DNA from: Candidatus Freyarchaeum deiterrae
GTDB taxonomy: Archaea; Asgardarchaeota; Jordiarchaeia; Jordiarchaeales; Jordiarchaeaceae
DNA length: 64,000 nt
Assembly: GCA_037305845.1 (NCBI GenBank)
Contig: CP147778.1
Location: 1,600,001 to 1,664,000 of the forward strand
Direction of reading: 5' to 3'
Shown: in pieces, positions 35,001 through 48,718 of the stretch
Layout of the letters: the number at the start of each line of letters is the position of its first letter
How positions within the stretch are numbered: position 1 is the stretch's first letter
The notes under the pieces: generated by a model
Told to the model about the DNA's origin: nothing
Database searches by the model: none
Seen by the model: the letters and a program-made list of their open reading frames with translations, nothing else
Made by a program: the position numbers and the translations under genes

Positions 35001-36620
35001 GTGCAAGCCAAGGATAGAGTCAAGAAAACATTAAAAATTATTCTCGAGGCAGGTTATCAGGTAACTCCAGACGCGTTGAAAGCCTTTTCACTTTATGAAA
35101 ACCCTGAAGATCTTGCAAAGGAGTTAATTTCGAAAATCGAAGAAGACTCGGAAAACATCATTACTATAGACAACAAATACATTAACGCATTAGAAGAAAA
35201 CCTTGAAACGGATAAGGAAATAGAACCGTCGGACCCCTCGAAGATAAAAAATCAAATCAGTGAGATAGCAAAACCAGAAAAAATAACACCAAAAACCCAA
35301 GAAACCATTAACAAAAATACAGAAACCCAAGAAATCAATACTAACAATCAATCTCTGTTAACTCAAGCAAGCCCAAAGAAATATTTAGCGAAAGATATTG
35401 ACGCAAGATTCGAAGTGATATTTGATCCAACCGGAAGAATGAAGGGTAAAGGCACATTTGAAAATTTCATAAACTATTTCAGAGACAGATACATGAGAAT
35501 TTACAATATCTTCCTTAAAAGGGGGGATATGGAAAATATTTCAAAATTTTCGGAAATTCCACCAGGCAAAGATAAGCAAACCAAAATAATAGGAATAATA
35601 ACCTCAATACAAAAAACGAAGTCTGGCAATATTCTAATGGAATTAGAAGACCTTGAGGGCTCAATCAAAGCAATCATCAATGAGAAGAATAGCGATGTAA
35701 TAAAAAAGGCAGAATATGCAATGTTGGATCAGGTATTATGTTTTGAAGGATATTTATCTAACGATATGTTCATCGTAAATGATTTCTTGTGGCCAGATAT
35801 TCCAATTAAACGAGAAAGGAATAAGTCGGATGAACCAATCTGTGCAGCGTTCATTTCGGATACACACTTTGGTAGTAGGGAATTTCTATCCGACTCATTT
35901 AAACGGTTTACCCAATGGTTAAAAGGACAAGTAGGAGACGAGAGAAGTAGAGAATTGGCAGGGCGTGTAAAATACCTAATAATTGCCGGAGACATAGTGG
36001 ATGGTATAGGTATCTATCCCACGCAGGAAGAAGATCTAGTAGTTACTAATATCCATGAGCAGTACGAGCTAGCAGCAAAATATTTTGAAGAAGTACCAGA
36101 TTATGTAAAAATGATCGCGATACCTGGAGGCCATGATGCAACTAGAATAGCACTCCCTCAACCCGCAATACCTAAGGAATACGCGGAACCCTTATACGAA
36201 ATCGGTGTAGAGATGTTAGGAGACCCCGCCCAGATTTTAACCCACAACGTGGAAACACTAATTTTTCATGGTGAAAGCTTAAACGATGTCACAGCAGCTA
36301 TACCTATAGAACAAACAAAACCACACAAAGCAATGACAGAATTAATAAAAGGAAGACATCTGAATCCAATATACGGAAATACACCAATAGCCCCTGAACC
36401 ACAAGATTGGCTTGTAATAGAAAGAGTTCCAGACATAGTACACTGCGGCCATATACATATCAATGATACAGGAGGATATAGAGGAGTAATCCTATTAAAT
36501 TCTGGAACTTTCCAATCACAAACAGCATATCAAAAATCGATGGGGCTAGAACCAACCCCCGCAAAACCATTAATTCTCGACCTGCAGTCGTATAAAATGA
36601 TTCAATTAGATTTCCTCTAA
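35001..36620 (+). CDS. polB: DNA polymerase D small subunit (DP1, proofreading exonuclease)
   Basis: OB fold, ISDTHFGS, AGDIVDGIGIYP, HGES, GHIH and NSGTFQSQT. Confidence 0.95.
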   Translation: MQAKDRVKKTLKIILEAGYQVTPDALKAFSLYENPEDLAKELISKIEEDSENIITIDNKYINALEENLETDKEIEPSDPSKIKNQISEIAKPEKITPKTQETINKNTETQEINTNNQSLLTQASPKKYLAKDIDARFEVIFDPTGRMKGKGTFENFINYFRDRYMRIYNIFLKRGDMENISKFSEIPPGKDKQTKIIGIITSIQKTKSGNILMELEDLEGSIKAIINEKNSDVIKKAEYAMLDQVLCFEGYLSNDMFIVNDFLWPDIPIKRERNKSDEPICAAFISDTHFGSREFLSDSFKRFTQWLKGQVGDERSRELAGRVKYLIIAGDIVDGIGIYPTQEEDLVVTNIHEQYELAAKYFEEVPDYVKMIAIPGGHDATRIALPQPAIPKEYAEPLYEIGVEMLGDPAQILTHNVETLIFHGESLNDVTAAIPIEQTKPHKAMTELIKGRHLNPIYGNTPIAPEPQDWLVIERVPDIVHCGHIHINDTGGYRGVILLNSGTFQSQTAYQKSMGLEPTPAKPLILDLQSYKMIQLDFL

Positions 36621-36715
36621 TTATCCAATTATTTTATAAAATATTAAGTTGTAAAAAATTATTTTAACTAAAAAGTCTAGATATCAATTTTAGATATCAA
36701 CCACTGATATCATCA

Positions 36716-37954
36716 TTAGCCTTGTGGGAGAGGAGGAACGTAATTAACCGTTTTTTTAATGTGATAATCGTTTTCGAGTATCCCTTTTATCTGTTCAGGA
36801 GGCATGTTGATCTTAATTTGTTTAGTCATGCCGTAACGACCCTCACTCTTGAGCTTAGCAATTATTATTCCGAGCATATCTAACTCTGCGATAAGTCCAC
36901 TGACACGCCTTTCTCCCAATATTTCCAGATTAACAATTTTACAAAGATCCGAATATACATCATAAACCAAACCAGTGGTTATTTTTGAGGATTTATTCCT
37001 GTCTAATAAGTAAATACTATAGAGGACAAGCTTAGATTGAATAGGAAGAGTTGAAATCACTTCCGAAACACGATCAGTCTCTAAAATACTTTGAGCCAGC
37101 TTAACACATTCCTGAGTAATTTTAGTCGCTCCCAGTCTTTCACCCTGCTCACCCGCAACACGCAAAAGATCCAAAGCGCGTCTAGCATCACCATGCTCTC
37201 TAGCCGCAAGAGCAGCGCAAAAATTAATCACGCCCGGTTCATCTAACACACCATCAGCGAAACTCATTTTCGCCCTCTCCCTAAGAATATCCTGCAACTC
37301 CAAGGCCCCATAAGGCGGAAAAACCAGCTCCTCTTCGCCCAAACTACTCAAAACCCGGGGATCCAAATTTTCTTTGAACTTTAGATTATTGGTAATGCCA
37401 ATAATACTGACACAAGCCGCCTTCAAAATAGAATGGTTAATCCTTGTTAAGTCATAAAGTACAGAATCTCCATCTTTATCCACTAATTTATCAACTTCAT
37501 CTAAAACAATAATCATAAGTCCCTTTCTAGAGTCCATTGCCGAGATAAAACGGTTGTAAACCTCGTCAGTAGGCAACCCTGTGAAGGGCACCTCAACACC
37601 AAGATTCTCACACAAATGAGCCAAAACACGATAATTAGTGTTAACAGTACTACAGTTCAAGTAAACATAATTGGGCGTTGAAACACCCATCTCTCTACAC
37701 TTTTCAGCCAAGTGTTTTAAAACATATTTAACCACTGCTGTTTTACCGGTTCCAGTTTTTCCATAAAGGAATACGTTAGACGGAGTTCCACTCTTTAGAG
37801 CAGTGGCTAAAATAATTCCCACTCGCCCTATCTCCTTAACACGATGCGGCAAGTTATCTGGAATATAAGTCGGACGAAGGACCTCCCGATCTTTGAATAT
37901 TCCTGGTCCCGAAAGGTATTTTTCGAATATGGAATCAAGGGGCTTCTCGCTCAT
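36716..37954 (-). CDS. cdc6: Orc1/Cdc6 replication initiator
   Basis: YIPDNLPHR, GKTGTGKT, VLDEVD, GDARRALDLLR and C-terminal wHTH. Confidence 0.96.
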   Translation of the reverse strand: MSEKPLDSIFEKYLSGPGIFKDREVLRPTYIPDNLPHRVKEIGRVGIILATALKSGTPSNVFLYGKTGTGKTAVVKYVLKHLAEKCREMGVSTPNYVYLNCSTVNTNYRVLAHLCENLGVEVPFTGLPTDEVYNRFISAMDSRKGLMIIVLDEVDKLVDKDGDSVLYDLTRINHSILKAACVSIIGITNNLKFKENLDPRVLSSLGEEELVFPPYGALELQDILRERAKMSFADGVLDEPGVINFCAALAAREHGDARRALDLLRVAGEQGERLGATKITQECVKLAQSILETDRVSEVISTLPIQSKLVLYSIYLLDRNKSSKITTGLVYDVYSDLCKIVNLEILGERRVSGLIAELDMLGIIIAKLKSEGRYGMTKQIKINMPPEQIKGILENDYHIKKTVNYVPPLPQG

Positions 37955-38290
37955 GCTTCAACCTCTATTATTTGATGTCTACGATTTAAACTTTAATCTT
38001 GGTATTACACCCGTAGGATACTCCAACCTCTATTAGTTGATGGTTTCCTCAAGTAGCTAAGCAGCTGAATAAGAAACCGTTTCAACACCAAGCTCTTGAG
38101 AAAACAGTCCATCCTCCAGGGAGGGAACTAGCAAAAATTGCTTTGGAAATCAAGGTAATAAAGGTTGCGCAGAGGTATAATAATAAATAATTGAATAACA
38201 GACGCGAAATGATGAAATCATTAAAAGATATCAAGCTAGATATCATAAAAAGTAATCCAAAAAAGGATACCAGAACAGGATATCAACAGT

Positions 38291-38782
38291 TCAAGTAAAC
38301 AGATAATCAAGTTGAGAGACGGCCTCAATCCTATCCTTCACTTTTTCTGTTCTAAGACGGTAACGATACTGTTTACGAGTACCAGTTCTCTCAAGCATAG
38401 ATTCCTTACTCTCGTCATAAATTCTAGCAAGGTAAGTAGACATAGTACTCAGAGGAAGACCCTCTTTAAAGAGATTAACATACTGCTCCTGAACATCATT
38501 AGAAGTAAACCACCCATGCTTGAAACACTTCAATAAAACAATCTCCACCTTCTCCTTCAGAGAGAGACTATCCAAATCAGTATAGGTGGCAGACACAGAA
38601 CTATCGCCAGAAGAACTATTACTAGAAACTTCGGACTCAACTTCAAACGAAGAAAATTTTTTTGATAGCGCCTCTACCAATGAGGCTGCTAAATGGGGTG
38701 GTATATCCCCCTCTAGGGTAAGCGTTACTTTGCGATCTGTTTCCGAATCCGAAATCTCAAACTTGTATTTTCTTTTTGGCAA
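38291..38782 (-). CDS. Winged-helix DNA-binding protein upstream of cdc6
   Basis: C-terminal WFTSNDV...LSTMSTYLARI...LERTG...YRYRL pattern. Confidence 0.75.
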   Translation of the reverse strand: MPKRKYKFEISDSETDRKVTLTLEGDIPPHLAASLVEALSKKFSSFEVESEVSSNSSSGDSSVSATYTDLDSLSLKEKVEIVLLKCFKHGWFTSNDVQEQYVNLFKEGLPLSTMSTYLARIYDESKESMLERTGTRKQYRYRLRTEKVKDRIEAVSQLDYLFT

Positions 38783-39070
38783 GCAGTTCCACCCGAAATT
38801 GAGGTACGGTAATAATTGTATTCACATGTATATATAGTTTATCTTTTAATAAGAAATTTGTGAACCAACCGATAAAAGAATCATAAAGAAAACAATAAAA
38901 CATAGTATAATATTTTACAAAATAAACACGAAATATTGACCAAAATACAAAAAAGAGGAAAAAATAAACCTTAAACAAAAAATAGAGTGCATTTTCCATA
39001 TTTTTTTATATTCACAGATTCACAAAAACACCATACTTAAAAACAATAAAAAAGAATTTTTATTAACAAT

Positions 39071-39090
39071 CTCCACTGGAAACAAAGGGG
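39071..39090 (+). promoter_or_regulatory. ORB element 1
   Basis: CTCCACTGGAAACAAAGGGG matches the TCCA-N-TGGAAA-N4-GGGG consensus. Confidence 0.88.
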
Positions 39091-39494
39091 TAAGTAATAA
39101 AAATGACATTAACACAAAAAGCCGAAATCTTTTCTAAAAATAACCAATTTAAAGCCTTATTTCAACAATCAGATTAACAAATGACGCGTCAACTGTGAAT
39201 GACATTAACACTGGAGATCCCAAGGAAAATTCTACTAATAATCAAAACACCGCCCCAGGAAGGTGAGAAAACAAGTTTCCTGAAGATAATTTCAAGATAT
39301 GATACCAATTTCAGATATCAATATTTGATATCATGGTTTTTTTAAACAATTAAAAAGCTTGGAACACATGTTCTAACAAAAACATCTGGGGCATATCAAA
39401 TTTTAATATGTCTTATACCTAAAAGAAAAATCAAACTGACTATAAAGAGGGACTTGAAATTAATTACATTTATGTATATGACATTCTACCGGGC

Positions 39495-39746
39495 ATGAAA
39501 AGAGATCCAGTGAGGATGAAGTTTTATAAAGAGTTGTTCGGCTTCAATTATTCTTGGGAAACAAAGAACCAAAGAAAAGTTAAATATCAACCCGGTTTGC
39601 TAGACTATGAGGGATGCGAGACGGCGGGTGACAGCGCAATATTAGTTCCTGAAGAGTATGTAGAAGAGTTCAATTCCTTTTTCAGAAAGTATCGGAATAT
39701 TATCTCATGCCGAGTTTTTATAGTACAAGAGGAAGTAAAACTATAG
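39495..39746 (+). CDS. Small hypothetical protein inside the origin, possible ferredoxin-like (Cas2/VapD-like) fold
   Basis: The frame stays open upstream through YIYVYDI, then R.KFYKELFG...GLL...S.ILVP. True start uncertain. Confidence 0.6.
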   Translation: MKRDPVRMKFYKELFGFNYSWETKNQRKVKYQPGLLDYEGCETAGDSAILVPEEYVEEFNSFFRKYRNIISCRVFIVQEEVKL

Positions 39747-39815
39747 AAATTAGAACACGTGTTCTAATTAATTAAAATTCGGCCCTCAAAAGGTAAAAAG
39801 TCAATCAAACCCCTA

Positions 39816-39836
39816 CCCCAACATTTCTACTGGAAA
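39816..39836 (-). promoter_or_regulatory. ORB element 2 (inverted)
   Basis: Minus strand reads TTTCCAGTAGAAATGTTGGGG. Confidence 0.82.
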
Positions 39837-39991
39837 TACTAACTACCCTTAGCATGGTATTTGTTTGTTAGTTAGTAACTACTCCCCCGTTTAAAATTGT
39901 TTCTTTCTATATTTAAACATACTTATCAAAGTTTTTCGATTAACAACTCAAGATTTATTTCCAATAAAATTTGTAATCAACAGTAAACAGT

Positions 39992-40012
39992 TTTCCAGTA
40001 GAAACCAAGGGG
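39992..40012 (+). promoter_or_regulatory. ORB element 3
   Basis: TTTCCAGTAGAAACCAAGGGG. Confidence 0.85.
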
Positions 40013-42099
40013 TGCGTTTTTAAAACTTTCCAAGTCACCTTCCAGGATTAGAGAACCGAACTAAACTTTTCAAAAAATAGTAAACCCATTGGAATAGCTC
40101 TTAGAGTTAATTTATGGTAACTAAATGAGCAGCATACAAATTAAAGAACTGTGGTCAGTAAAGAATGGTTTCATTTCTTGTATTAGTGAACAATGTGAAT
40201 CTTTCTGAAAAAGAAAGTTACGAGTATCAAAAAAGTAATATCTGGATCCGCGTCGTCATTATTTTTTCGAACGATGTTTAACCGGTAACTAATGCTATAC
40301 CTCATCAGCACGCTATCTATTTTTGATTTCGAGAGTAGACATCATTGTCTGATATCAATTTTTAGCATCATTTTTTGATGTCAAGGTATTCTTAGTAGTC
40401 GGATTAGAATTTGTGCTGATAATCAAATCGAGTAGTACAATCTAATTCCTTTGAAATTGGTTGCAAACATGTAGTTCTTGACCGTTCAGGCACTATGAGA
40501 ACCTGAGTTAATTGTCCTGTAATCATAATTCCTGTAATTTAGTTTACTGCAGCTCTCAAAATTATTCTAAATTGTCAAATATTAAAAGTTTAAACCAATG
40601 GAACTAGGTGGATCTGTTTTTATGAATTGGATATATTTGGGGGCTTTTATTATTTCGAGAATATTGAAGATTGTAACTGCTATCCTTTTTACGAAGATCA
40701 AAGCAAGAAAACCTCATCACCTCTCAAAAGGTAGGGAATAAATTTACAGGGTTTAAAATGCAAAAAGGAAAAAAGTATAATGGGACTGGATTACCCTGAA
40801 AGTTGGGAAGATATTAATTTGAGGGTGATATGCCCCGCATTTCTAACTATAATTCAGAAGTGTAGATCCTAACCTTCAATTTTTTGGGGTATTCCAGAAT
40901 AAGCAGACAGCAATATTTGGGGGCATTCCCTCTTTCTATATATTGATTCAAAAACTCGCGTGGGATTGATCCGGAAAAGATAATTTCATTTTCTTACTTT
41001 TATTCGCCCCTATTTAATGTAAATTTGGAAGAGCCGAAATTTTGATATCAAAAGATGTAATCCATAAATGATATTTAATGCAGATATCAGATATCTTAAA
41101 TAGATATCAAAAATGATATCAAGCAGTTAGAGGAATAAGAAATCAGCGGCAGGACCAGGACTTACAAGACGTTGGCCTGCTTTACTTTAATCGAGGTAGA
41201 AAAGCTGAAGAATAAAAACAAAAAGATATCATTGTTATTGCTCTTAATCTGAAAGAATTATCTAGAAAATTTAGAAAAATGTTTACAAAAGTGTATACGG
41301 AGAACCCTCCTCCGTAGGAACCGCGAAAATTTCTTACTATATTAAGGGAGTAATATCTAGATAGTCTATATGGGTTAAAAAACGCATAAAAACCGATATT
41401 TTAACCGAACTCATTGAGATAATAGACAAAAAAGATTTTTAAAAAAGAAAATAATAGAGCTTTTCAACAAAAATAACGAATTTTAATCTTTGAATTTTCG
41501 TAAAATGAATGATATTAAGCGAGGCAATAACCCTTGGTAGTAATTTTTGAAACATAGATTTTGAGAATTAGCCTGGGGCTACTATCAAAATATACCAGCG
41601 CTTGCAAATCTTATCATATCTACGACTGGTTCCTATTTTTTCATTGTTTTTTAAAAAGACCACTGGTAAACCTGTTGCTTGAGTAAAGCTGAAAATTATA
41701 ATTCCAGCAATTGTAACGCTTGGCTTCGGAAATTGCACGCATGGAAAATTCTTTCGGATTAACGGTCAGGGTCTTGATCCCTTTTAGTTTTTAACTTTTT
41801 TATTATTTGAGTTGGTTTTCTACTATTACTGTTCCTCTCGTTTGTAGCTCTTTGATGCATTTTTTTATTACGTCTCGACCCTTTGATATCTCTTTCTGAT
41901 ATCTTTTTCTGAAATCAGTATCTGATTTCGATATCTTTATCAATTATGAGTAATAATAAAATATTTGCCAATTGTTATTTATTCCGTAGCCAGTTGGAAA
42001 TCATTTGAGTATATCATTAAATAATGGTTGAAATGTTATCCAAGGGCGTTGTTTCGTCTTTATTGTATGGTTGAAGCATTTAATTTAGAGGTGATACTC

Positions 42100-43161
42100 A
42101 TGGAAGAAAAGTCTGGTGTTGTTGGTAAGCTTTATCCTGGTGTGGCTGAGGCTAGAAATGCTTATTATGAGCGTGTTGGATGGAAGTGGAATCCTTTTGC
42201 TAAGGTTCGCTTGAGCGACCCTGAACTCTTTGTTGCTTCTACCGATGTGATTTTAGAGATTGATGATTATATTAAGGCGAAGGAAAGGCATCTCCTAATT
42301 ACGAGTGAAGAACCTGGTATGGGTAAGACTATGCTTTTGGAGCTGATTTTTAATGATCTTATTCTGTTGTCTAAGCAGGAGAATAAAGAGTATTTGTTTA
42401 ATCCCATAGTGGTGAATCAGAGTAAATTGTTTGTGCGTCAGATGGGAGAGGTGATAGCGAAGAAGTTGGATATAAAATACACGAGTAAAATGAGTTCTGA
42501 GGATATTTACACGTTGATTAAGAAGGATATTATGACGCGTTTTCTTTTGACGAATTGGATGACTCTGATTTTTATTGATGATTTTGGTGATAATGATTCC
42601 GAGGTTTTTATTAAGCTTAAGGAGTTGGGTGATCTAACCCAGAAAGACGCTAATAATTATCTTTTTAACCAAGAATCTGATTTTAAGAAGTATGCTAGTT
42701 CTGCGAATTATCAATTATCTAAGGACAAATTGAATGAGCTGAAAAAAAACGCTTTGGATCCTGAAAGTAGGGATCAAATGATTTGTATGCTGATACTTAC
42801 TGGAACTAAATCTCATGCGTTGGGGCTAAAGACCGGGGTTCCTCATCTTTATGATCGTTGCTGGGAAATTGAACTCGACAGACTGGATAGAAAAAAGGTT
42901 CGGGAGCTTATTGGAAGAAGATTGTATTGGGCAGGTGGAAAACTGGCGAGTTTTAAAGAGGACAACTTTGAAACTTATCCCTTTGATGAGGACGCCATTT
43001 CTGTTTTGACGGAAAAGGCTCACGGCGTAGGGCGGGACCTACGTCTGCTTTGTAATCAGGCAGTGTTTGTTGCAGCTTCAAACTTGAAGGACGGGCGAAG
43101 CGAAAGGATTACCAAAGAGATAATCGAATCTTTGCCACCGGTAGAAAAATTAGTAGATTAA
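42100..43161 (+). CDS. AAA+ ATPase (ExeA/Cdc6-like architecture)
   Basis: GAGGTGA RBS, N-terminal W.WNPF, Walker A EEPGMGKT, Walker B IFIDD, and YPF...G.GRDL..LC lid. Confidence 0.85.
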   Translation: MEEKSGVVGKLYPGVAEARNAYYERVGWKWNPFAKVRLSDPELFVASTDVILEIDDYIKAKERHLLITSEEPGMGKTMLLELIFNDLILLSKQENKEYLFNPIVVNQSKLFVRQMGEVIAKKLDIKYTSKMSSEDIYTLIKKDIMTRFLLTNWMTLIFIDDFGDNDSEVFIKLKELGDLTQKDANNYLFNQESDFKKYASSANYQLSKDKLNELKKNALDPESRDQMICMLILTGTKSHALGLKTGVPHLYDRCWEIELDRLDRKKVRELIGRRLYWAGGKLASFKEDNFETYPFDEDAISVLTEKAHGVGRDLRLLCNQAVFVAASNLKDGRSERITKEIIESLPPVEKLVD

Positions 43162-43259
43162 CTATAGTGATATCTAAAAGAGATATTTAATGAAACAATA
43201 ATGACCGATATCTTAATATTGACATCCTGATAATGATATCTTAATAATGATATCAAAAA

Positions 43260-43727
43260 ATGGTTTCAGGAGTAGATATCTTGCCTAGGCTTACTAAAAT
43301 CGCCGAGAAGGCGCGTGAACAAGAAGCTTTAAAGCAAGCGTCTGAGGATGCTTCTAAATCTCTTAGTACTGAAAACGTTGAAATTGCAAATTTAAAAACT
43401 TCAGATGCCATTGGTCGATTAACTGCGAGCGGTGGATTAGCTGGATTAGAGCACAGCCCCGAAGGCGTTAAGATTGTTGAGAAGATTGTTTATCGTTATG
43501 TAAGAAAGGATCCTGACACTCGGCTCGATACTAATTTTAATGTTAGAATGCCCAGTAACTACTTGGATTTTTTAAAAGGTAGATTTGGAGAAAGAGGCGC
43601 AACTGTTTTTTGTAGGATAGCAATTCTTGAGAAAATGGAGAAGGCTTTTTCAAAACCAGAGCTTGATCCTCTTAAGCTTTTTGAGTTATTGGATGAGCAA
43701 AAACAGAATCTCTCTCGAAAATCGTAA
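43260..43727 (+). CDS. Hypothetical protein with probable C-terminal ribbon-helix-helix domain
   Basis: TNFNVRMP-SNYLDFLK-GRFGERG-ATVFCRIAILEKM fits the beta-alpha-alpha pattern. Flexible N-terminus. Confidence 0.7.
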   Translation: MVSGVDILPRLTKIAEKAREQEALKQASEDASKSLSTENVEIANLKTSDAIGRLTASGGLAGLEHSPEGVKIVEKIVYRYVRKDPDTRLDTNFNVRMPSNYLDFLKGRFGERGATVFCRIAILEKMEKAFSKPELDPLKLFELLDEQKQNLSRKS

Positions 43728-43962
43728 ACATTTTTTTATTTTCCCTAATTTTTGATATCATTTTTTGGTATCTTTTTGTGCTATCTTATTTATTTTTGCA
43801 TTTATATAATTTGACAATTTGCTTTTTAGTATATTATATTTGCAGTATACTTTTCTGGAAATAGGAAATGAGAAAGCAATGGACGCTAGTCCTCGCTATA
43901 AAAGATTTGGTAGGTTACGAAAGAGATTGTATTGAAGAAAAAACTGAGGGATGTGATGCGTG

Positions 43963-44511
43963 TTACTCTTTTCGTCCGGTTAGGAAGAAGGGGTTTGCGT
44001 ATTTTTGGATCATGTCTAGTAGGTTTTTTTCTAGTATTTTGAGTGCCGCTTTTTTCTCTTTGGTTTGTTCCTTTTCGTGACTTAGTTCCATCTGCTCCAT
44101 GTAGTTGCTTATAATGTTGGACATGTCGAGATATGGATGTAAGCTTGGGCTATCCAGAATACCGACGTAGCCCAATAGCACGAGAGAGTATATTGCTTCT
44201 ATTAGGTTGGTACAGGCCTGTCCTAGAACTCTTCTAAAGGCGCCACGTGTAACCCCTTTTGTTTTTAATGGTGCGCGAAATTTACGCTTCTGGCTAGGCG
44301 CTCTTAAGAATCCTTTAATTTTATACTTTACAGGTTTGCCGGCGCCTTCATCCAGTAGGAAATTAATCATGAGGGTCTCAAATTGGACTGGCGTAATATT
44401 AGATGAACTGAGTAGTTTACTAACGATAGGATCTGCTAATATATTCTCAACATATTCCCGAACTTTCTCAATATCTCGCTTTTCTGAATCACTGTCATTT
44501 TTAGATAGCAT
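43963..44511 (-). CDS. Conserved-looking archaeal hypothetical protein (possible HTH)
   Basis: SNIT..QFETL...VTRGAF.R.L.QA..N...AIY..VLLGYVG. Flanked on both sides by GATATC clusters. Confidence 0.75.
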   Translation of the reverse strand: MLSKNDSDSEKRDIEKVREYVENILADPIVSKLLSSSNITPVQFETLMINFLLDEGAGKPVKYKIKGFLRAPSQKRKFRAPLKTKGVTRGAFRRVLGQACTNLIEAIYSLVLLGYVGILDSPSLHPYLDMSNIISNYMEQMELSHEKEQTKEKKAALKILEKNLLDMIQKYANPFFLTGRKE

Positions 44512-44581
44512 CTTATGCTCCCTTCTTTAAATTTTTATTATAGTAATGATGTCACTAATTGATATCATTTCACGAAATCTT

Positions 44582-46897
44582 TTAGTTTTGAGCTGCGACT
44601 ATTGCTTGCCCGATGCTAACGCCTGCGTCTCCTGGAGGAGTTTTTTGGTGCTGAATGAATTTTAGGTTATTTTCTTTTACTAGTTTGCTTATTATCTTGT
44701 TTATGGCTTCGTTGTATGCTACACCGCCCGTAAATCCTATAGTTTTTATTCCTGTTTTCTCCGCTGCTATTATTGCCATTTGTGCTAGCCCTTCTGCGAA
44801 TGCTCTTTGGCCTGAAGCTGCTAGGTCTTGGATTTTGTGCTGATTTATTTTTTCTAGAATGTCATTTAATAGTTTTGTAGTGTCGAATATATGCACGCCA
44901 TTTTGTTTGATTATTTCTGGGGTGATTCTTATGGAATCGTTGCCTTTCGCAGCCATTGATTCCAGTCTTATGGATGGTTCTCCTTCGTATGTTTTTTCTA
45001 GACAAATTTTTAGTAGTGCCGAGATTGCGTCTAGAACTCTCCCTGAGCTAGTAGTTGTGATGTAATCTTTTTTTCTTAAAATATTAAGAACTGCTTCCAT
45101 CTCCTGTTTGCCGTATTTAAATCCATCTAGATAGTTCTTAACTAGCATTTCTCTGAGTTCGTCTTCTGGTATTGCATCGCTGAGTATTGCGGTTAACATG
45201 CGTGTGGGGTATTTAGTACTAACATCCCCCCCTGGCATAGGTTGCGATTTTAGGTGTGCTAGTCTTTCTATGGAATTGTATGAGGTAAGCAGAATTTCGC
45301 CACCCCATATTGTTCCATCTAGTCCGTATCCTACTCCGTCGCTGGCTATGCATATTATTGGCTCCTCGATGTTGTTTTCAGCCATTAGTTTTGCTGCGTG
45401 GGCATGATGGTGTTGAACTCTTACCAATTGAATATTGTGAGAATCCGCGAATTCTTCCGCGTATCTTGTGGTGTAAAAATCAGGATGCAAATCACAAGCA
45501 ATCAAGTCGGGTTCTACGAGAGTTAATTTCAACATTTGATTGACTACACTTTTGTGGAATTCTATGGTTTCTAGGTCTCCTGATAAGTTTCCTATATGTT
45601 GGCTTGGAAAGCATCTGTTCCTTTTCATTACAGTTATAGTTGCAGTTAGTTCAGGGCCTACTGCTAAAATGCCTTGTCCTTTATACTCTATGATTGTGTC
45701 TATTGGTTCTGGTACATAACCTCGGGATCTGCGGATAATTTTTGGATTGCCGTCAATTATTCTTATAACGGAGTCGTCACACCTCTGATAGATTTCTCTG
45801 TTATGCAGTAAGAAGAAATCAGCGAGATGCGCTAATTGTGAAATTATCTCATTATTTGACGTCGCCATAGGGTTGTCTGTCAAGTTGCCACTTGTCATCA
45901 CAATAGCTGGATCATTAATTTGTTGAAGAATTAGGTTGTGAAGTCCAGAGTATGGAAGCATTACGCCGACATTGTGAAGCCCGGGGCTTATCTCCTCGGA
46001 TAGGTTGTAGTTTTCAGATTTTTTGAGTAAAACTATTGGGCGTCTAAACGAAGTAATCATATCTTCTTCATATTCATTTACAAAGGCATATTCTCGGACT
46101 TTATCAAGGTTTAGAGACATTATTGCGAAAGGTTTGTATTTTCTCTTTCCTTTTCGTCTGCGTAATTCTAGTATGCATTCGTCGTTGGTTGTTAGGGTAG
46201 CTAGATGGGTGCCACCGATTCCTTTTATCGCTAGAATCCTTCCCTCCTCAATTAAATTTGCAGTTTCTTTTATAGGATTCTCACAATTTACAGTATTACC
46301 GTTTTTGTCATAAAGAGTTAATTTCGGCCCACATATCGGGCAGCAAATACCTTGAGCATGATATCTTCTGTCTAGGGGGTTCTTATATTCCTGATTACAG
46401 TACGTGCATAAAGGGAACTTGCTCATGGTGGTTCTCATTCTATCATATGGTAACTCAATAATTGAAGTGAACCTAGGACCGCAGTCCACGCAACATGTAA
46501 AAGCATAGTTATAATGGCGGTCCGCCGGATTAAGGATGTCATTTAGGCAATTGCCACAGATTGAAATGTCGGGAGGAATATATGAACTTTTTAGAGTGCC
46601 TTCCTTTGAGCTTTTTCTGATATTGAAAGTTTTAAAGCGCCCTTGGTACCGTTTCCAATTTACATCTATTTTTTCATATCTAGCCATGGGCGGTTTTTCT
46701 TTTTCCAAATCTTGAATAAAGTTCTCTATCGCACTTCTCTCCCCTTCAACTACGATGCGAACCCCTGCGTCGCCAAGGTTAAGAACATATCCAGTAAGCC
46801 CCCACTTAACCGCAATTCTATAAACAAAAGGCCTCATCCCAACTCCTTGTACAATACCACTGCAGTTAATTTCACAAGAAGCTTTCAAGAAAATCAA
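44582..46897 (-). CDS. hypF: [NiFe]-hydrogenase maturation carbamoyltransferase
   Basis: GIVQGVGMRP, zinc fingers CxxC/CGPRF, QHHHAH, DGVGYG and GDAGVSIGQ. Confidence 0.96.
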   Translation of the reverse strand: MIFLKASCEINCSGIVQGVGMRPFVYRIAVKWGLTGYVLNLGDAGVRIVVEGERSAIENFIQDLEKEKPPMARYEKIDVNWKRYQGRFKTFNIRKSSKEGTLKSSYIPPDISICGNCLNDILNPADRHYNYAFTCCVDCGPRFTSIIELPYDRMRTTMSKFPLCTYCNQEYKNPLDRRYHAQGICCPICGPKLTLYDKNGNTVNCENPIKETANLIEEGRILAIKGIGGTHLATLTTNDECILELRRRKGKRKYKPFAIMSLNLDKVREYAFVNEYEEDMITSFRRPIVLLKKSENYNLSEEISPGLHNVGVMLPYSGLHNLILQQINDPAIVMTSGNLTDNPMATSNNEIISQLAHLADFFLLHNREIYQRCDDSVIRIIDGNPKIIRRSRGYVPEPIDTIIEYKGQGILAVGPELTATITVMKRNRCFPSQHIGNLSGDLETIEFHKSVVNQMLKLTLVEPDLIACDLHPDFYTTRYAEEFADSHNIQLVRVQHHHAHAAKLMAENNIEEPIICIASDGVGYGLDGTIWGGEILLTSYNSIERLAHLKSQPMPGGDVSTKYPTRMLTAILSDAIPEDELREMLVKNYLDGFKYGKQEMEAVLNILRKKDYITTTSSGRVLDAISALLKICLEKTYEGEPSIRLESMAAKGNDSIRITPEIIKQNGVHIFDTTKLLNDILEKINQHKIQDLAASGQRAFAEGLAQMAIIAAEKTGIKTIGFTGGVAYNEAINKIISKLVKENNLKFIQHQKTPPGDAGVSIGQAIVAAQN

Positions 46898-47160
46898 CCG
46901 TTTAATTTAATTTCAATTTAATCTTAATTTTTATTAATTCTCCAATTTTAGAGCATTACTAGAATTATATAATTTTTCTCGGTTGCTAGACCGCTAAATC
47001 TTTTATTATCTTTTTGAGCTTCCCTTTCTAGAGAATTATAGAGAGGTCTTTATCATGCCTAACGAACGACAAAGGTGAAATTAATATTCTCATGAGTAAT
47101 ATTCTTAAGGGTAATATTCCAAATATGTTTAGAGTTATCTTTTATTAGGGTGGGTTTAAT

Positions 47161-47715
47161 TTGTTTCGACTTCCAACTCCAGAAGATGTTAAAAAACTTA
47201 GGAAAAAGGTGGGTCTAACACAAACTGAATTGGCAGAAAAGGCAAGTGTAAGTCAATCTCTTATAGCTAGAATAGAAAGCGGCTCAGTGGATCCCCGCTT
47301 ATCTACACTACAAAAAATTTTGAATGCCATGCAAATAGCGGATGAGGGATCCTTAACTGCAAAAGACATTATGTTTTCTCCAGTCGTAACAATAGATTCA
47401 GATGCACAGATTCTTGAAGCCACCGAATTAATGAGAAATAAAGACATTTCCCAGCTTCCTGTTGTTAAACAGGGGCGGCCAGTAGGAAGTGTAAATGACC
47501 AGATCATAGTTCAGCATCTGTCCAACGGGCAACAAATTTTCCAGAAGAAGGTAGAGGAAATAATGGAAGAAGCTTTTCCCAGTGTAAGCCCATCAACTAA
47601 GGTAGAAATTATACACCAATTACTCGCAAGAGGCCACCCAGCTGTATTAGTGACAGACAAGGGCGCAATTGTAGGAATTGTTACAAAAATAGATTTAATA
47701 TCAGGCGCAAGATAA
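47161..47715 (+). CDS. XRE-HTH + CBS-pair transcriptional regulator
   Basis: TQTELAEKASVSQSLIARIE.G.VDPRLST followed by two CBS domains. Confidence 0.92.
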   Translation: MFRLPTPEDVKKLRKKVGLTQTELAEKASVSQSLIARIESGSVDPRLSTLQKILNAMQIADEGSLTAKDIMFSPVVTIDSDAQILEATELMRNKDISQLPVVKQGRPVGSVNDQIIVQHLSNGQQIFQKKVEEIMEEAFPSVSPSTKVEIIHQLLARGHPAVLVTDKGAIVGIVTKIDLISGAR

Positions 47716-47847
47716 AACCCAATTCAGATACCAAAATCAAAAATTTATACGATATTTTGTTCCTTAAAAAAAGAAAAAACAACAAATTAATATATGGGTT
47801 AATTCTTAAACCAAGTCTTGAAAAAATTATAAAATCAAAATATTTTT

Positions 47848-48026
47848 GCAGGGTTAGCCAAGATTCCACATAGTTTTGTGTGGAATGGGAACGGTACGGC
47901 GGTAGAAACAGCCTCTATTATGAGATGTTGCAGAAGCTCGAGATCACCTATGGCCAATAAAGTGGGTCAGAACGTGAAACTTACTGGCGGGTTTCCGCCG
48001 CGTGAGTTCAAATCTCACACCCTGCG
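47848..48026 (+). tRNA. tRNA-Ser(CGA) with three BHB introns (47863-47891 at 15/16; 47906-47935 at 30/31; 47943-47978 at 37/38)
   Basis: Acceptor stem GCAGGGT/ACCCTGC. Spliced anticodon arm GTAGG-CTCGAGA-CTTAC. Variable stem GGCGG/CCGCC, G73. Confidence 0.9.
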
Positions 48027-48220
48027 CTTACAAACAATATCAAATATGGGTAGGTATTCTTTTTGGAGACTATTTTACTTCGGTGTTTGTAATCTTTTTT
48101 CGATATCAAAAAAAGATATCTGAATGCGGTGTGTTTTCCTCTCATCCTGCGTTTTTGCTTTTCAAAGTAGGCTTGTAATTATTTTTTGGCGCCTTTTAGA
48201 CATTTATTCCCAAAGATATG

Positions 48221-48718
48221 TTACCCCAGTAGGTACCCCAGTTTTTTTACAAGGTCTCTTCTTTCTTGTCTTTGTTTTTCGTTTTCGATGGCGGTCACTT
48301 TTTGGCCGTCGACTGCACCAAGTATTGCTCTACCGAGCGAAGTTTCTGCTAAAATTATCTGAACCGGATTCGCTGATGCTACTGTGATGTTGCAAACTGT
48401 GGCTACGTTTTTTAAGGCTCCTAAAACATGTATTGGGTAAGCGTTCGTCATTAGAATAACGAATGCGTGGGATGCTCCGATTGCTAGTGCGTTTTTCGCT
48501 GCGAGTTTGGCTAATCTATCATCGTTTCCATTGAATCTTACCAATTTTGGGACTGCTTCATTCATCGCGACTCCAAATTTAATACCCGGAGCCGCTGCGA
48601 CAATTTCCCTGAAAAGATAGTCAACAGTATAAATAGAAAAATTAGCCATACCGCAAATAAACTGGTCATCTTTTTCTTTCTCGATATCCAACGTTATTAT
48701 TTTAATATCCTGAGCCAT
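48221..48718 (-). CDS. Adenosine-specific kinase / DUF355 family protein
   Basis: FGVAMNEA, AIGASHAFVI, NAYPI, ASANPVQII and GRAILGAVDG. Confidence 0.85.
   Translation of the reverse strand: MAQDIKIITLDIEKEKDDQFICGMANFSIYTVDYLFREIVAAAPGIKFGVAMNEAVPKLVRFNGNDDRLAKLAAKNALAIGASHAFVILMTNAYPIHVLGALKNVATVCNITVASANPVQIILAETSLGRAILGAVDGQKVTAIENEKQRQERRDLVKKLGYLLG

Follow-up and report, generated by a model that had tools for sequence, protein, structure and literature searches.

Phased GATATC arrays around the replication origin of an Asgard archaeon, beside an Orc-like ATPase and a probable ribbon-helix-helix protein

The closed 3,576,204-bp chromosome of Candidatus Freyarchaeum deiterrae contains, within the 64,000-nucleotide stretch analysed here (positions 1,600,001–1,664,000; hereafter the window), ten clusters of the palindromic hexamer GATATC and its close variants, most of them repeated at 13-bp steps. 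The clusters (arrays 1 to 10) are distributed over 11.5 kb around a replication origin (oriC) with origin recognition boxes (ORBs), the gene of an Orc1/Cdc6 initiator and a pair of genes for an AAA+ ATPase (u377) and a probable ribbon-helix-helix (RHH) protein (u155). Five conserved open reading frames (ORFs) of the zone (u163, u83, u377, u155 and u182) were not named by any library, and the zone also encodes a helix-turn-helix (HTH)-CBS protein. In window coordinates, the features are:

35001–36620, plus strand: small subunit of DNA polymerase D (PolD), DP1 (Pfam DNA_pol_E_B, 2.3e-14)
36680–36711: array 1, three exact GATATC at a 13-bp period where DP1 and cdc6 converge, between their 3' ends
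36716–37954, minus strand: Orc1/Cdc6 initiator gene (Pfam Cdc6_C, 1.9e-28; Cdc6_lid, 9e-23)
38214–38284: array 2, six hexamers 260–330 bp upstream of cdc6, just beyond the 3' end of u163
38291–38782, minus strand: u163, a small protein
39071–39091, plus strand: ORB1 (CTCCACTGGAAAC-AAA-GGGGT), a weaker box with a G-string, read from the sequence and with equivalents in relatives
39301–39332: array 3, three hexamers within oriC, between ORB1 and the u83 gene
39495–39746, plus strand: u83, a small protein between ORB1 and ORB2
39815–39835, minus strand: ORB2 (TTCCAGTAGAAAT-GTT-GGGGT), inverted relative to ORB3
39836–39992: AT-rich stretch between ORB2 and ORB3, a candidate duplex unwinding element by analogy with the canonical archaeal oriC layout
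39993–40013, plus strand: ORB3 (TTCCAGTAGAAAC-CAA-GGGGT)
40312–40382: array 4, six degenerate hexamers 300 bp to the right of ORB3
41044–41120: array 5, seven hexamers that fall into two sub-registers, in DNA with few ORFs
41885–41935: array 6, five hexamers that precede the ATPase gene u377
42028–43161, plus strand: u377, an AAA+ ATPase with a likely start at 42100
43169–43280: array 7, eight hexamers (13- and 14-bp steps) that fill the u377-u155 gap and abut the likely TTG start of u155
43260–43727, plus strand: u155, a probable RHH protein with a likely TTG start at 43281
43754–43785: array 8, three hexamers where u155 and u182 converge, between their 3' ends
43963–44511, minus strand: u182, a helical protein with an HTH of the sigma-r4/LuxR type
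44548–44579: array 9, three hexamers in the 70-bp hypF-u182 gap, 37–68 bp upstream of the u182 start codon
44582–46897: HypF
48089–48120: array 10, the outermost site, three hexamers downstream of an intron-rich tRNA-Ser gene

Every one of the ten clusters reported in the initial annotation of this DNA was recovered at its coordinates. Together they comprise 47 hexamers, of which 26 match GATATC exactly; 15 deviate at one position, five at two and one (AGCATC at 40364) at three. Most of the 36 steps within clusters measure 13 bp (28 steps), with two of 12 bp and four of 14 bp. Information content is confined to the hexamer (G1 in 46 of 47 sites, T5 and C6 in 45 of 47 each), the flanks being W (A or T), and the array spacers are richer in A+T (85%) than the surrounding non-coding DNA (69%). 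The pattern GATATC-N7-GATATC with up to two mismatches matches the window 29 times against 2.7 expected, a count that none of 100 shuffles reached. Genome-wide, all six exact pairs of period 13 map between window positions 36680 and 48120, as do 16 of the 22 pairs with at most one mismatch, in a zone that amounts to 0.32% of the genome (binomial P = 9e-36). The six remaining pairs represent background, since control periods of 9–11 and 14–17 give three to nine. Furthermore, exact GATATC occurs 28 times inside the zone (2.8 expected), and nine of the 17 genome-wide chains of at least three sites are located there; the other eight include degenerate hexamers. The predicted enrichment of phased pairs at the origin is thus decisively borne out by the genome-wide scan, with density elsewhere at background rather than equal throughout.

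Two other identities for the hexamers were considered and rejected. The arrays are not ORB or mini-ORB repeats: they do not match the ORB consensus (TTCCAGTGGAAAC, frequently accompanied by a G-string), and the zone has true ORBs in addition. Restriction-site avoidance or a methylation signal would leave the phasing unexplained, and GATATC is only mildly under-represented across the genome (888 occurrences versus 1144 expected). An Rfam search of the zone returned no known RNA or repeat family.

The arrays occupy several kinds of intergenic DNA. The starts of u377, u155 and u182 are overlapped or closely preceded by arrays 6, 7 and 9. Three others lie in gaps that hold no promoter. Two of these, at 36680–36711 (DP1/cdc6) and 43754–43785 (ORFs at 43260 and 43963), separate convergent 3' ends exactly as the initial annotation had described them, and the third (48089–48120) follows the tRNA-Ser gene and the 3' end of the ORF at 48221–48718. 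A 3.2-kb segment of the window (38800–42027) is nearly ORF-free, with u83 as the only ORF, and contains the ORBs and arrays 3–5; apart from array 5, no feature could be assigned between 40400 and 41900.

The identification of an ORB-type oriC in this zone, marked by an inverted ORB pair together with cdc6 and DP1, was confirmed. Three ORBs with G-strings are present, and ORB2 and ORB3 are inverted around a 157-bp AT-rich core (39815–40013). All three Orc1/Cdc6 genes of the genome are found within 47 kb, at the turning point of the cumulative skew near 1.655 Mb (window ~55000). The two paralogues outside the zone form a divergent pair at 1.681–1.684 Mb (G000:C1:1681371-1683911), ~33 kb to the right of array 10, and share 30% and 25% identity with the window cdc6. 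An isolated ORB-like element with a G-string (TTCCAGTGGAAAT-AAAGGGGC) was also identified at G000:C1:287377, distant from every cdc6 gene.

Relatives of F. deiterrae keep both the genes and the arrays. The gene block PhoU-DP1-cdc6-u163-u83-u377-u155-u182-HypF-HTH/CBS is syntenic in four metagenome-assembled genomes (MAGs) of the same genus. It is also syntenic in the two genomes of a second Jordarchaeales family (f2) whose loci were fetched, where protein identity is 45–65%. Arrays of GATATC or GGTATC occur at equivalent positions in the same-genus MAGs and in f2. When orthologous spacers are aligned, the hexamers remain in register and the 7-nt spacers vary. For example, array 1 is in register in two of the MAGs (G003 and G004) and array 9 across the genus; array 10 has a counterpart in G002 and G003, and the position of array 6 also carries arrays in f2 and in the more distant Thorarchaeota (Thor) and f27 loci described below. 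Conservation in related genomes, proposed as a check of the arrays, holds: the boxes stay in phase while the spacers drift. Selection acts on the boxes and not on the spacers. A fifth MAG of the genus (G005) lacks the whole region, including cdc6 and full-length hypF, and is uninformative about co-loss because the missing region is an assembly gap.

The ATPase encoded beside arrays 6 and 7 has the motifs of a classical AAA+ protein: Walker A (GMGKT), Walker B (IFIDD), a candidate Arg finger (R277) and a lid motif (GVGRDLRLL). The Walker motifs, the sensor-1 GT, the DR of the candidate Arg finger, the GxxRDxRxL lid and a candidate sensor 2 are invariant over 12 divergent homologues. The AlphaFold2 (AF2) model of u377 is confident (mean predicted local distance difference test (pLDDT), 84) and superposes (Foldseek, VIA) on Cdc6 of P. 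aerophilum, ORC1 of A. pernix and Drosophila Cdc6 at Z 19.2–19.4, over ~250 residues with a root mean square deviation of ~3 Å. It also matches the transposition ATPases TnsC (Z 18) and MuB (Z 16). The alignment spans Cdc6 residues 1 to ~290, which leaves u377 with base and lid only; the protein stops after the lid and, unlike the true cdc6 product (36716–37954), has no Pfam match to Cdc6_C or Cdc6_lid. u377 is an AAA+ protein of the ORC/ExeA/TnsC kind, with a predicted Orc1/Cdc6-like fold that lacks the winged-helix domain.

At the sequence level, u377 is nearer to the AAA_22/ExeA/TniB group than to Cdc6. Its match to the AAA_22 profile (Pfam PF13401, COG3267) falls under the cut-off (E 0.098); some Thor members do match AAA_22, and so do all ten of the weak u377 relatives that were scanned. 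An exhaustive hidden Markov model (HMM) search recovered a discrete clade of nine representatives with E < 1e-30, then a gap and ~700 weak matches of the AAA_22/ExeA/TniB type. A sequence search of the PDB with the u377 profile gave nothing useful. No relatives were found on extrachromosomal DNA in 72,556 plasmids, 50,697 phages or the IMG/VR contigs. The ParA/MinD-like genes of the genome are all located away from the arrays.

The gene downstream of u377 codes for a small protein, u155. Its N-terminal helix (PRLTKIAEKAREQEA) is conserved and is joined by a variable linker to a C-terminal strand-helix-helix (TNFNVRMP / SNYLDFLKGRF / GERGAT / VFCRIAILEKM). The RHH-like pattern, with alternating residues in the strand and a G-x-S/T/N turn between the helices, is invariant in 17 homologues. 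Pfam Arc matches eight of these 17 family members at sub-threshold levels (E 0.02–0.05, best 0.02), and a profile search of the PDB returned nothing. Neighbours of u155 in ESM feature space score below 0.9; one cluster, 97% of which is PF18064 (CB_ParB_C), reaches 0.88 and serves as a lead only. The pattern and the Arc matches point to u155 as a probable RHH protein.

A second instance of the system was identified in other Asgard families. Full-length homologues of u377 (27–30% identity) are present in 69 of the 76 genomes of f7, which are Thorarchaeota by database names, and also in f27, f3, f20 and f26; the same query had no match in families such as f5 (0 of 29) and f9 (0 of 68). Eight loci from f7 and f27 keep the gene order ATPase, ~105-aa ORF, u182 homologue and HypF. 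In the small ORF, a basic linker connects the conserved N-terminal peptide MSLLxKYRKE to a C-terminus that resembles an RHH; the ORF was treated solely as a positional and architectural counterpart of u155. GATATC arrays are absent from the eight loci, which carry GTAWTAC boxes at a 9-bp period before, between and after the ATPase and RHH genes. We scanned five f7/f27 genomes for GTAWTAC-N2-GTAWTAC with at most one mismatch and found 70 of 73 matches in one zone per genome (11 of 12 in G237, 10 of 10 in G198, 17 of 18 in G015, 24 of 24 in G127 and 8 of 9 in G244). Five Asgard genomes that lack the ATPase have one to five dispersed matches, no more than a reversed-pattern control. The f7/f27 arrays are an independent second instance, with a different motif and the same module.

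The distribution of the GTAWTAC sites extends well into genes. The zone of Thor G127 covers 40 kb and many of its sites are intragenic: hypF alone has five, and a CoA-ligase-type gene and a HEAT-repeat gene are among the others that carry them; the genes that bear or adjoin them have unrelated housekeeping functions (NAC, AtpD, CoA ligase and saccharopine dehydrogenase). Those inside hypF are at identical codon positions in all six f7 loci compared. These convergent and intragenic placements uphold the earlier claim that the arrays are not simply operators, although several arrays do overlap the promoters of the module itself.

The module is also tied to the origin in families where we saw no arrays. 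In f3 (a closed 1.418-Mb genome) and f20, the u182 and ATPase genes lie directly beside DP1-cdc6-u163-u83, and in f26 they lie directly beside cdc6-u163-u83; an RHH-type ORF follows the ATPase in f3 and f26. ORB pairs with G-strings adjoin the module in both Jordarchaeales families and in f3, f20 and f26. Furthermore, an inverted ORB pair lies at a distance of 2.7 kb from hypF in Thor G077, and the zone of Thor G127 includes a perfect ORB, which brings to six of seven the families examined with ORBs beside the module; in the two 20-kb loci from f27 none was detected. A Cdc6 paralogue is located 8–25 kb from the zone in all five f7/f27 genomes tested, and the main cdc6 orthologue of Thor f7 and f27 is 49 kb to 1 Mb away. 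In the f3 locus, GTATAC is enriched ~2-fold without phasing.

Two sequence features are particular to the Jordarchaeales proteins. Their u377 carries a helical insertion of ~32–40 residues (~205–245; window 42640–42770) that is absent from the Thor and f27 homologues, and their u155 has an extra conserved segment (VKIVEKIVYRYVRKDP) ahead of the strand. Both additions might be related to the longer, 13-bp register of the Jordarchaeales arrays.

Comparison of the two instances suggests which protein reads the boxes. The putative RHH strand reads N-F-N-V-R in both Jordarchaeales families, where the box is GATATC, and I/V-I-S-x-S/T-V in f7 and f27, where it is GTAWTAC. The putative recognition helix of u182 (GV[ST][RK]GAFxRxLxQAxxN) is, by contrast, invariant across the lineages with either motif, and u163, HTH-CBS and cdc6 had no tblastn match within the 20 kb that were examined at each of the Thor and f27 array loci. 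In addition, the geometry of a 7-bp box every 9 bp would fit one RHH dimer per box, as at parH and OF (PMC3130281), and not HTH dimers. Because the strand covaries with the motif, the u182 helix does not vary, the other proteins had no match in the loci and the boxes have this geometry, we infer with moderate confidence from these sequence comparisons that u155 is the reader of the arrays. Among the binders named in the initial annotation, the RHH protein at 43260 is therefore favoured; the winged-helix (wHTH) protein at 38291 and Cdc6 are disfavoured because tblastn did not find them in the 20-kb Thor and f27 loci, and the HTH protein at 43963 because its putative recognition helix is invariant.

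A model can be proposed from these components. Each u155 dimer would read one palindromic hexamer by placing a two-stranded beta-ribbon in the major groove, and the 13-bp register with its AT-rich spacers would let adjacent dimers touch and coat each cluster. The conserved N-terminal peptide of u155, held on a flexible linker, could then recruit or stimulate u377. In the case of MuB and TnsC, a second protein that recognises specific sequence sets both position and turnover. Loading of u377 under the control of an adaptor is plausible because its ORC/Cdc6, TnsC and MuB kin assemble on double-stranded DNA in an ATP-dependent manner. The resulting nucleoprotein zone around oriC would act as a centromere-like handle or origin-domain organiser that positions or segregates newly replicated origins, and the arrays that overlap promoters would additionally autoregulate the module, as in plasmid par operons. 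That the GATATC arrays are cooperative protein-binding sites marking the origin-proximal region as a unique landmark is an interpretation we regard as evenly poised. The centromere-like function suggested when the arrays were first noticed agrees with their uniqueness in the genome, their conservation, their position at oriC, the parH/ParG/ParF-like layout and the second motif instance; it is at odds with the motor, which is not ParA-, ParM- or TubZ-like.

Several other observations weigh against this interpretation. The Walker A of u377 is the classical GxGK[ST] and not the deviant KGGxGK[ST] of the ParA/MinD type, and we know of no partition system driven by an AAA+ protein. A period of 13 bp exceeds the 7–11 bp of characterised RHH arrays, and the RHH fold of u155 is itself predicted from a pattern and from sub-threshold profile matches. 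The small proteins of Jordarchaeales and Thor gave no significant homology in hhalign. No phased arrays were found in the f3, f20 and f26 loci by k-mer phasing, tandem scans allowing one mismatch or k-mer enrichment, so that the arrays are either not obligatory to the module or were missed by such simple scans. Furthermore, regulation alone could explain the part of the pattern that overlaps promoters, the turning point of the cumulative GC skew is a maximum, which the bacterial convention would read as a terminus, and every functional step of the model is one that we infer.

Among known systems, the layout resembles that of the type Ib plasmid partition system ParF-ParG-parH of TP228, in which a small RHH gene, whose product has a flexible and functional N-terminal tail, comes after an NTPase gene (PMC3130281); u377 and the probable RHH gene u155 fit this gene order and architecture. 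parH also combines short degenerate boxes with AT-rich spacers, binds one dimer per box and serves as operator and centromere in one (PMC3130281). ParA-based partition systems have a cis-acting repeat array next to the operon, and in this genome, f2, Thor and f27 the arrays lie before, between and after the u377 and u155 genes or their counterparts. The differences are nevertheless substantial. ParF is a ParA protein with a deviant Walker motif, whereas u377 is a classical-Walker AAA+ protein with an ORC/Cdc6-like fold; parH has 4-bp boxes every 8 bp, compared with 6-bp palindromes every 13 bp here; and parH is one plasmid site of ~100 bp, compared with ten clusters over 11.5 kb of chromosome that are known from sequence. 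Since the motor is not of the ParA type, the module does not belong to the ParA-based partition families.

The SegAB/segS system of Sulfolobales is similarly chromosomal and archaeal, and its binder combines an RHH with disordered regions (PMC12139799, PMC8682754). The target of SegB, which has an RHH, is a 7-bp repeat in three copies (PMC12139799); segS, like the arrays, is a short tandem repeat ([AGNGTNN]x3) beside the operon and within reach of the origin (PMC12139799, PMC8682754). However, SegA is ParA-like and u377 is not, we found no sequence relationship with SegAB, and segS occurs once as a full site, with partial sites genome-wide, compared with ~47 boxes in one zone here. Among the ATPases, Orc1/Cdc6 shares with u377 a base and lid that superpose at Z 19 and a location at an ORB-type origin; u377 differs in its lack of a winged helix, its AAA_22/ExeA/TniB sequence affinity and its association with arrays dissimilar to ORBs. 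MuB, TnsC and TniB are near in fold (Z 16–18) and polymerise in an ATP-dependent manner on non-specific double-stranded DNA, which gives a mechanistic precedent for an AAA+ protein controlled on DNA by an adaptor, but this locus has no transposase, TniQ or transposon ends and its module is vertically inherited and fixed beside oriC. MetJ binds cooperatively as one RHH dimer per short palindromic box at abutted tandem boxes; unlike u155, it is a metabolic repressor with a regulon scattered over the genome and no partner ATPase.

We considered control of replication initiation as an alternative role for the arrays, one that we judge rather unlikely. The arrays would then be auxiliary initiator sites flanking the ORBs, and the RHH-bound arrays would recruit u377 beside Orc1/Cdc6, where it would aid or restrain origin melting, the loading of MCM or re-initiation. 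Comparable modes of action are those of iterons, clusters of DnaA boxes and additional ORC subunits. This role would suit an ATPase whose best structural matches are Orc1/Cdc6 and eukaryotic ORC/Cdc6, the position of arrays 3 and 4 within or next to the ORB core and the placement of the module beside ORBs and cdc6 in six lineages. It accounts poorly for sites that span 11.5 kb here and 40 kb in Thor G127, including the interiors of genes distant from ORBs, for a u377 sequence closer to AAA_22/ExeA/TniB than to Cdc6, and for the 49 kb to 1 Mb that separate the zone from the main cdc6 orthologue in Thor f7 and f27.

We consider it unlikely that the arrays are a local operator network and nothing else, in which an RHH or HTH protein controls its own operon and a few nearby genes without a structural or segregation role. 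RHH repressors such as MetJ typically act at tandem-box operators, and the arrays at the starts of u377, u155 and u182 (6, 7 and 9) are placed as such operators would be. The tandem-box operator OF of the RHH repressor ParG is another example (PMC3130281). However, a network of this kind does not explain the three window arrays between convergent 3' ends or after a tRNA gene, nor the many Thor sites that are intragenic and beside functionally unrelated housekeeping genes, and ten clusters with ~47 boxes far exceed the needs of autoregulation.

Equally doubtful is that another protein (u182, u163, HTH-CBS or Cdc6) reads the arrays and that the ATPase-RHH pair is a mere neighbour. In favour of such a reader, u182 has an HTH-like domain and belongs to the zone in each lineage that was examined. 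Its AF2 model (pLDDT 76) is helical, with a C-terminal helical hairpin, and residues ~36–121 (VIA) match the DNA-binding domain of EsrB at Z 7.5, as well as DesR and region 4 of SigL and SigR; Foldseek and a PDB profile search with u182 gave nothing useful. Some members of its family are labelled as UPF0251 DNA-binding proteins. But its putative recognition helix is the same whatever the motif, and the family is large and reaches Bathyarchaeota, far past the array-bearing genomes. The homologues of u163 have weak BlaI-type winged-helix matches in three of five cases, yet u163, HTH-CBS and cdc6 are those not found by tblastn in the 20-kb Thor and f27 loci, although a Cdc6 paralogue lies 8–25 kb from each zone. 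In addition, Cdc6 already has its own ORBs in the zone, and the 9-bp spacing of the 7-bp boxes would be too tight for HTH dimers.

Highly improbable, in our view, is a terminus-domain marker that organises the Ter region or coordinates it with division in the manner of matS/MatP. MatP is an RHH-containing protein whose site, matS, is a palindrome of 13 bp. The position of the zone at the cumulative GC-skew maximum would suit such a marker, as would the sign of the strand-independent skew in non-ORF DNA (+0.032 on the left and −0.037 on the right), which is that of a bacterial terminus. Against it, the inverted ORB pair, the AT-rich core, DP1 and the three Orc1/Cdc6 genes are located here and not at the opposite pole, adjacency to ORBs is kept in six lineages and genes point outward on both sides of 1.655 Mb (minus-strand share 55% on the left, plus-strand share 52% on the right). 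An origin is the better reading of the zone than a terminus; it rests on the ORBs, the cdc6 genes and gene orientation, and is preferred because the ORBs, DP1 and all cdc6 genes are here. This would imply that the leading strand is C-rich and that the polarity of the GC skew is inverted relative to the bacterial convention, so skew-based calls of origin and terminus may be swapped in such Asgard genomes. The paper on the complete Freyarchaeia genome (~3.6 Mb) gives skew evidence of bidirectional replication only and mentions neither cdc6 nor the repeats (PMC11291895). Least credible is a remnant or active mobile element or defence island near oriC, with a Rep-like ATPase, an RHH regulator and iterons: TnsC, MuB and TniB are near structural or sequence relatives of u377 and a tRNA gene adjoins array 10, but the module is vertically inherited and syntenic across Asgard classes at 27–65% protein identity, the zone genes scanned against Pfam have no transposase or integrase domain and u377 is without relatives in the plasmid, phage and IMG/VR sets.

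The layout of tandem boxes, RHH adaptor and NTPase is already known; the motor class, the confinement to the origin zone and the phyletic range are new. In the papers searched in full text we found no description of the arrays or of an Orc-like ATPase without a winged helix paired with an RHH protein, and none of a segregation system in Asgard archaea, SegAB being described in Sulfolobales only. More tentatively, several Asgard lineages (Jord-, Thor- and Odin-type and allies) may possess an unrecognised machine for partition or origin anchoring, with an ORC/MuB-like AAA+ motor in place of ParA, actin or tubulin, loaded by an RHH adaptor onto lineage-specific tandem-box centromeres that flank oriC, a possibility that we hold below even confidence. 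Were the arrays centromere-like or origin-anchoring, the module would provide a new motor class for DNA partition and show how an adaptor redirects an ORC-type ATPase. Even if the module were purely regulatory, the ORBs, two conserved small proteins associated with the origin and the module itself would delineate how oriC is built in several Asgard classes. The Asgard archaea are the closest known relatives of eukaryotes, and their chromosome segregation and origin organisation are essentially uncharted. The module offers a concrete cis/trans system for experiments, with countable boxes confined to a single place in each genome, two small proteins that are soluble and can be expressed, and a natural swap between GATATC at 13 bp and GTAWTAC at 9 bp.

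The remaining proteins of the zone are also conserved in their positions. u163 and u83 are kept directly beside cdc6 and the ORBs in Jordarchaeales, f3, f20 and f26 genomes and are candidate Asgard origin-associated proteins; searches of Pfam and NCBIfam to name these two, u155 and u182 gave nothing above threshold, and Pfam lent no support to u83 as a Cas2/VapD protein. HypF adjoins the u182 homologue in Jordarchaeales, Thor, f26 and f27, in tandem, divergent or convergent orientation. Because the adjacency persists whatever the orientation, the linkage between the two genes appears to be positional rather than operonic. At the right end of the zone, the tRNA-like gene next to array 10 (47848–48026, plus strand) drew no call from ARAGORN or Rfam, and its ends resemble an acceptor stem and a T-arm. 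Introns are reported in 92–95% of the tRNA genes in the Freyarchaeia genome paper (PMC11291895).

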